11,964 bases of DNA from a virus. Of the stretch, positions 5,497-5,676 are shown piece by piece. Under the pieces are notes generated by a model. That model was not told the origin of the DNA, did no database searches, and saw only the letters and a list, made by a program, of their open reading frames with translations. The position numbers and the translations under genes were made by a program. The stretch is taken from the UHGV virus genome UHGV-1565976. One strand, 5' to 3'. How positions within the stretch are numbered: position 1 is the stretch's first letter; each line of letters opens with the position of its first letter.

Positions 5497-5676
5497 GTGC
5501 AGGAACTTAACCGCTGGTTTCGTGACGGAAGAGGACTTTATGTTCATGTTATTCGTTGGGAGCCAGAAACACAGCGCGTTATCTATCTTCGCAAAGACTA
5601 CCCGCATGAGTGCTTTAGTCCTTTGTGGAAATTCAGGCGTGATTTTGTTGAGTGTGAAGGACCACCAGCATATTGA
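5497..5676 (+). CDS. small DUF4222-like protein (59 aa, GTG start), absent from the ORF track
   Basis: Frame open 5461..5676 after a TAA at 5458..5460; GTG at 5497 preceded by a GGGGGG run 6 nt upstream; translation VQELNRWFRDGRGLYVHVIRWEPETQRVIYLRKDYPHECFSPLWKFRRDFVECEGPPAY is protein-like and matches the remembered DUF4222 pattern. Confidence 0.45.
   Translation: MQELNRWFRDGRGLYVHVIRWEPETQRVIYLRKDYPHECFSPLWKFRRDFVECEGPPAY

Follow-up and report, generated by a model that had tools for sequence, protein, structure and literature searches.

A small DUF4222-family gene in a lambdoid Escherichia coli prophage and its out-of-frame overlap with ymfM

Introduction

At a much-studied locus of E. 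coli prophages, two annotation traditions are in conflict over what is encoded behind the CII-like regulator: the curated K-12 genome lists ymfM, whereas the NCBI pipeline calls a gene of the DUF4222 family in another reading frame. The same question arises in the DNA analysed here, a stretch of 11,964 nucleotides (UHGV-1565976, the window in what follows) from a lambdoid E. coli prophage related to SfV, mEp460 and e14. A first-pass annotation, made from the letters of the window and a list of its open reading frames (ORFs), had drawn attention to a 59-aa ORF that this list lacked, and had proposed that its frame (frame 1) looks more like a folded protein than the overlapping frame 2. Here we ask which of the two frames behaves as a gene, what has become of the other, and what this may imply for the SfiC cell division inhibitor activity of e14 that is now assigned to YmfM.

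Results

The ORF runs from 5497 to 5676 on the plus strand (59 codons, GTG start, TGA stop at 5674-5676), and its coordinates and translation (VQELNRWFRDGRGLYVHVIRWEPETQRVIYLRKDYPHECFSPLWKFRRDFVECEGPPAY) are exactly those of the first-pass annotation. An in-frame TAA (5458-5460) leaves GTG 5497 as the first possible start. The GGGGGG run 6 nt upstream (5485-5490, plus strand) that had been put forward as ribosome-binding site is a credible one: its predicted duplex with the 16S anti-Shine-Dalgarno sequence reaches -9.3 kcal/mol, where the 5th percentile of 20-mers from the window is -6.9, and is similar to that of the AAGGAG in front of the K-12 homologue (-8.8 kcal/mol). This G-run is retained in the closest relative (locus L004), and relatives with ATG starts show GGAGG at the same position. 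As to why the ORF was overlooked, its length does fall one residue below the ORF lister's default 60-aa cut-off, as had been suspected, but length is only part of the matter. A 382-aa ORF in frame 2 (5348-6496) overlaps it over its whole length, and in a RefSeq genome 99.7% identical to the window the DUF4222 coding sequence (CDS) is absent because PGAP calls this long CDS, labelled 'Rha family phage regulatory protein', in its place. Other E. coli genomes in RefSeq with the same region do annotate the DUF4222 CDS.

The resemblance to DUF4222 proposed in the first-pass annotation holds up in a profile search: Pfam PF13973 matches residues 3-52 along profile positions 4-51 of 53 with 51.1 bits (E=9.4e-14; gathering cut-off 27 bits), and PHROG family phrog_1343 matches over the full length (E=1.9e-36); NCBIfam holds no model matching the product of either frame. 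An alignment of 11 members, RgdR (see Discussion) among them, has G13, V16, R32, Y35, C39 and F46 invariant and D10, V18, V28, H37, P42 and F50 nearly so, and in size, family-invariant residues and prophage setting the window protein agrees with the family while differing from it in nothing. The identical 59-aa protein is public on at least 1000 contigs under the name 'DUF4222 domain-containing protein', and the region is found in 1387 of 5426 complete E. coli genomes as well as in phages SfV, mEp460 and several Stx-converting phages. The gene is thus an already catalogued, uncharacterised member of a family for which there is neither a solved structure nor an assigned function.

Conservation was followed through 84 close loci and 32 diverged ones (Citrobacter, Enterobacter, Kluyvera, Kosakonia, Raoultella, Atlantibacter and others, 61-84% amino-acid identity). 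The ORF is intact in all 84 of the former and in 31 of the latter, mostly with an ATG start and GGAGG 8-12 nt upstream. Nei-Gojobori comparison of the diverged loci gives a median pN of 0.148 and pS of 0.686 in the DUF4222 frame, while the same nucleotides read in both other frames show pN above pS. Within the clade of the window (40 unique sequences) pooled pN/pS over the ORF is 0.13 in frame 1 as against 1.06 (frame 2) and 7.6 in the other frames, and across clades the DUF4222 frame keeps to 0.14-0.20. At synonymous sites the divergence is the same as in the neighbouring cII gene (0.655 for both). It is frame 1, then, that is under purifying selection, with none in frame 2, in line with the first-pass view of which frame is the more protein-like; lack of both a family match and selection on frame 1 had been named there as grounds for dropping the gene, but the match and the selection are both present.

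Some loci of the comparison set deserve separate mention. In a Phytobacter sp. (L025, 3001-3180) the sole broken DUF4222 ORF breaks off after 6 codons, yet residues 4-59 can still be aligned by tblastn; this probably reflects a pseudogene or a frameshift. Two enterobacterial-type prophage loci (L027, L033) come from contigs named as Vagococcus sp. and Geobacteraceae MAG, probably through contamination or mis-binning in the source assemblies.

AlphaFold2 (17 homologues) models the product with a pLDDT of 85.8 as four long strands, a short helix (residues 43-49) and a last strand, that is, a predicted single small SH3/Tudor-like beta-barrel of five strands that has a short helix towards its C-terminus. 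The protein has almost no net charge, acidic and basic residues being roughly balanced. Fold searches against viral and PDB structures return generic small-barrel matches only, such as DUF1653 (PDB 3be3), the C-terminal Tudor domain of UvrD/PcrA, CarD, the RNA polymerase (RNAP)-interacting domain of Mfd and KOW. With 2-21% sequence identity, scores typical of generic small barrels and no functional residues in common, this likeness is no evidence of RNA polymerase binding.

The gene occupies a conserved place in the early-right operon. On its 5' side the window has a repressor of the S24/XRE type, encoded on the other strand, the Cro-like HTH_3 gene at 4547-4807 and, at 4800-5351 on the plus strand, a CII/YmfL-like regulator (Pfam Phage_CP76, annotated ymfL in RefSeq), and by tblastn synteny a CII/YmfL gene lies 150-200 nt 5' of the DUF4222 gene in 31 of 32 loci. 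Directly 3' there follows, in most loci, a replication gene (HTH_36/DnaD-like), whose ORF overlaps that of DUF4222 at ATGAGCACTAA in e14-like loci; the YmfM stop of these phages falls in the Shine-Dalgarno region, about 9 nt 5' of the replication gene's ATG. At this point in K-12 (L116, 3159-3181), and at the same place in L008, L009 and L035, three ORFs meet, with the conserved DUF4222 C-terminus ...HEH* overlapping the replication-gene start. The arrangement is not uniform further afield. In a distant clade the genes follow one another as Cro, CII, a 61-aa gene, DUF4222, HTH_36, and about 175 nt separate DUF4222 from the replication gene in three loci (L119-L121); a distant member (L118) has a 4-nt overlap with a Phg_2220_C replication gene; and in three others (L122-L124) the DUF4222 gene adjoins an AraC-type regulator, with no replication gene.

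The window and its nearest relative L004 have an insertion between DUF4222 and the replication gene that consists of isrK, C4, the gene of a Rha-type antirepressor and a 74-aa gene, the isrK-C4-ant module taking up 0.8 kb. The first-pass placement of the ORF between the CII-like gene and rha is correct as to order, but its 3' neighbours are the two RNA genes, and rha comes only after them. Both RNAs score above their Rfam gathering scores: isrK at 5708-5784 (plus strand, 58.7 bits, terminator hairpin 5765-5778) and C4 antisense RNA at 5809-5896 (plus strand, 78.8 bits). A putative isrK promoter can be read by eye at 5673-5701 (plus strand; TTGATT 5673-5678, 17-nt spacer, TACACT 5696-5701), with its -35 box overlapping the DUF4222 stop codon and an implied start at about 5708, where the Rfam match to isrK begins; it scores 8/12, below the threshold of a consensus promoter scan that found none in 5300-6000. 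A tie between DUF4222 and the isrK/C4/antirepressor module was considered and rejected because the RNAs occur in only one (L004) of the 20 diverged loci scanned with Rfam.

Several features of this module and its surroundings are recorded here in their own right. The tandem of isrK and C4 directly 5' of a Rha-type antirepressor is laid out like the isrK-orf45-anrP locus of Gifsy-1 and immI of P1, and an ATG at 5813, in frame with Rha, has the position of the orf45 start in Gifsy-1, about +106 as counted from the isrK 5' end. The 74-aa ORF (6493-6717; phrog_1153, E=8e-45) overlaps both the Rha stop (ATGA) and the replication-gene start. Pfam has no match to it, yet by eye it follows a DUF4222-like pattern. 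The DUF4222 ORF scores weakly against phrog_1153 (E=0.008), and hhalign gives no more than E=0.05 (probability 1%). The 74-aa ORF may represent another DUF4222-like gene, very distant from the first, placed ahead of the replication gene. Beyond the replication gene, relatives carry annotations for a PerC-family regulator (yfdN-like) and a phage N-6-adenine methyltransferase (window 7529-8023 and 7990-8676); some PerC homologues encoded by phage-inducible chromosomal islands (PICIs) also activate LEE (PICI paper).

Frame 2 leads to ymfM. Its ATG overlaps the CII/YmfL stop as ATGA, and the stretch up to the DUF4222 start (5348-5496, plus strand) aligns with the N-termini of YmfM; like K-12 e14 YmfM (b1148, 'cell division inhibitor YmfM', 112 aa), which occupies the same slot after ymfL, it starts MNSLT. 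This homologue is degraded. The motifs PQLRMIPVPG, FRYERR and IVGVYY are gone, constraint in the clade of the window is weak (pN/pS 0.50 versus 0.64 and 1.26 in the other frames) and, unlike K-12 ymfM, the frame has lost its usual stop and runs on (5498-6496, plus strand) over DUF4222, isrK and C4 into Rha. In the nearest genome RefSeq shows 5348-6496 as one 382-aa protein (WP_001530587.1). The frame-1 product, in contrast, has no residues in common with YmfM, being read from the other frame: only frame 2 is homologous, in its degraded form. Neither Pfam nor NCBIfam has a model for YmfM.

K-12 itself (NC_000913.3, 1,204,001-1,204,180, equal to L116 3002-3181) contains an unannotated 59-codon DUF4222 ORF, out of frame inside ymfM, with a TTG start after AAGGAG and a DUF4222 score of 67.3 bits. 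In about 2000 E. coli genomes whose DNA is identical here, another MG1655 assembly included, PGAP annotates DUF4222 (WP_001250269.1) and not ymfM, while the curated NC_000913.3 has ymfM and no DUF4222 gene. Nor is the overlap confined to K-12, for 30 of the 32 diverged loci have a YmfM-like ORF of 108-127 aa that reaches from the CII stop into the +1 frame of DUF4222 and ends at a single conserved terminal stop at DUF4222 codon 52-54. In the non-overlapping N-terminal part of YmfM (about 56-60 codons) own-frame pN/pS is 0.29, 0.54 and 0.39 in three sequence types, with at least 0.84 in other frames; over the overlap all amino-acid constraint lies in the DUF4222 frame (pN/pS 0.14-0.20, pS unreduced). 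AlphaFold2 models of YmfM have residues 10-64 folded (moderate confidence) and 65-112 disordered.

The tail of YmfM is nevertheless kept open. At least 52 codons of the +1 frame are free of stops in 33 of 33 e14-like sequences, as compared with about 2.6% of synonymous randomisations with local codon usage, and the 31 unique sequences have without exception NNT or NNC at the risky DUF4222 codons 4, 18 and 28, where an 'unsafe' fraction of 0.56-0.68 is expected. CTG is used freely at codon 31, where it is harmless, and the window sequence retains safe codons at the risky positions. DUF4222 genes without a YmfM extension do have +1 stops: seven in rgdR (see Discussion), and at codons 1, 18 and 47 in the clade P0051. 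In e14-like prophages the +1 frame over DUF4222 is therefore selected to stay stop-free, with its amino acids unconstrained. A possible reason may be sought in a translational coupling chain from cII through ymfM to the replication gene, an idea we draw from the position of the YmfM stop about 9 nt before the ATG of that gene. A programmed -1 frameshift as the route from the YmfM frame to DUF4222 was set aside, the relatives having a conserved Shine-Dalgarno sequence and ATG of their own for the latter.

A stand-alone 61-aa homologue of the YmfM N-domain (MNIVTKNIGIPQIRCKALSGG...FRYEVRV...WVPSNHS; no Pfam family) is present in L119 (2213-2398), L120 (2316-2501) and L121 (3819-4004), where it ends in ATGA at the DUF4222 start. 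This separate gene of the P0051 clade probably represents the older layout.

Discussion

Our findings argue strongly that ORF 5497-5676 is a genuine gene and that frame 2 of the window is a decayed remnant of a ymfM-like gene, which happens to stay open into the Rha gene, rather than a second protein under selection. As for what the gene does, the only characterised relative with a DUF4222 domain is RgdR (ECs1581, 99 aa) of E. coli O157:H7, an activator of LEE1 and type III secretion that also represses motility and changes the binding of Congo red (PMC3378721; PMC10877973). RgdR binds DNA without specificity in EMSA, and an RGD motif at residues 20-22 is reported as important for type III secretion activation (PMC3378721). 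RgdR is encoded by PICI/CP-933C (O-island 51) and shares the Pfam domain with the window protein (82 bits over RgdR aa 17-68); both proteins are small, borne by mobile elements and encoded upstream of replication genes, with the RgdR ORF overlapping the PICI primase gene by 4 nt. The two differ in other respects. Identity is 41% over 34 residues only, RgdR has N- and C-terminal extensions (63-aa truncates exist) whereas the window protein consists of the domain alone (59 aa), the RGD motif aligns with L4-N5-R6 and is thus absent from the window protein, and the host element is a P4-like island in one case and a lambdoid prophage in the other.

Gene order and orientation suggest that DUF4222 would be read rightwards in the early operon after the Cro-like and CII/YmfL genes, so that its product would appear upon loss of the prophage repressor. 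By analogy to RgdR, whose effects on LEE1 transcription, motility and surface properties come about without sequence-specific binding to DNA, we tentatively envisage that the DUF4222 protein might bind another protein, of host or phage, and in this way change host physiology early in induction, though this is somewhat less probable than its contrary. Candidate targets would be, in order of preference, the transcription machinery, the divisome and the replication initiator.

Could the frames be seen the other way round, with the 382-aa frame-2 ORF as the real gene and the 59-aa ORF as its by-product? PGAP indeed calls this CDS in a nearly identical genome, about 80 of the 84 close loci have no stop in this frame between the CII stop and the end of the downstream gene, and Pfam Phage_ASH matches its aa 117-212. 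That match, however, corresponds to about nt 5696-5983 and covers the isrK and C4 genes, the 'Ash' part has no protein-coding signal (pN/pS 0.91 overall, over 5677-5947), and the frame does no better over the DUF4222 overlap (1.06 versus 0.13 in frame 1) or over isrK (2.9). Openness itself says little when two of three frames are open over isrK-C4 (shuffle P about 0.05), the Pfam Rha domain begins only at aa 222, and it is the frame-1 product that has a curated family match and a confident fold. To our minds such a scenario is very improbable, and the 382-aa RefSeq CDS is most likely an over-extension, since it lacks a coding signature over DUF4222 and over the RNA genes beneath it; 'Ash family protein' annotations at this site may likewise be translations of RNA genes. 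A milder view has both frames translated, with ribosomes from the ATG at the CII stop reading the +1 frame across DUF4222 and the sequence of the resulting tail being immaterial. The stop-free +1 frame of all e14-like sequences (P about 0.026 per sequence), the safe codons kept even in the window, purifying selection on the N-terminal part of YmfM (pN/pS 0.29-0.54) and the fold predicted for its N-half ahead of a disordered tail speak in its favour, as does the closeness of the YmfM stop to the next ATG. The tail might then serve as a bridge by which coupled ribosomes reach the next gene, or simply be a disordered appendage of the YmfM N-domain. For the window, where the N-terminal motifs are degraded, selection is weak and frame 2, its usual stop lost, enters RNA genes, we find this doubtful, all the more as YmfM-N suffices in a related clade as a gene of its own, 61 aa long and stopping where DUF4222 starts; the same reserve applies to both suggested roles of the tail. 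The decayed remnant hence seems the better reading of frame 2 in this prophage.

Alternatives also exist for the function of the small protein. The phage division inhibitors that are known resemble the DUF4222 protein in their small size, and this protein might itself be one, exerting the SfiC activity of e14 alone or jointly with YmfM. SfiC was assigned to ymfM by means of a whole-ORF pBAD24 clone and whole-gene deletions (bioRxiv 10.1101/2020.11.19.390815), and a term search of the text of this preprint returned no mention of frameshift, stop-codon or start-codon mutants. As the K-12 ymfM ORF holds DUF4222 codons 1-53 with their own AAGGAG and TTG, these constructs carried both frames, of which DUF4222 shows the stronger conservation. 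In the pBAD24 clone, however, the vector's ribosome-binding site drives the YmfM frame, initiation at the internal TTG would be weak and the product would miss its last 6 residues; besides, the conserved YmfM N-domain could equally be the inhibitor, and the available parts of the RgdR report (PMC3378721) describe no filamentation. On these grounds we regard a DUF4222 origin of SfiC as unlikely. Our literature search found no paper connecting ymfM and DUF4222 and none on ymfM and ribosome profiling. Less likely still is a role as accessory factor of the replication module. It would fit the many relatives in which the two genes abut with ORFs overlapping at ATGAGCACTAA, and the 4-nt overlaps with a replication gene in L118 and with the primase gene in the case of RgdR, but it sits badly with the 0.8-kb module and another small gene that intervene in the window and L004, with the gap of about 175 nt in L119-L121 and with the AraC-type neighbour in place of a replication gene in L122-L124. 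RgdR, moreover, acts in trans on host promoters (PMC3378721). An early factor that binds another protein is the function we would, tentatively, put ahead of these.

For the window itself, the outcome is a small real gene due for annotation at 5497-5676 and a 382-aa 'Rha family' call, extending over two RNA genes, that is probably too long. Wider interest rests only on the conserved out-of-frame overlap with ymfM and the SfiC ambiguity that results from it. Comparative data assign amino-acid constraint to the DUF4222 frame and conservation to the first 60 or so residues of YmfM, with the YmfM tail being merely stop-free, and those who use pBAD-ymfM express two candidate proteins because the ymfM ORF also carries the DUF4222 frame. 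If DUF4222 were the cause of the SOS-inducible, SulA-independent SfiC filamentation, K-12 ymfM would in part be an out-of-frame shadow of a conserved small gene, and DUF4222 proteins including RgdR would be widespread prophage and PICI effectors that act on the division or transcription machinery of the host.
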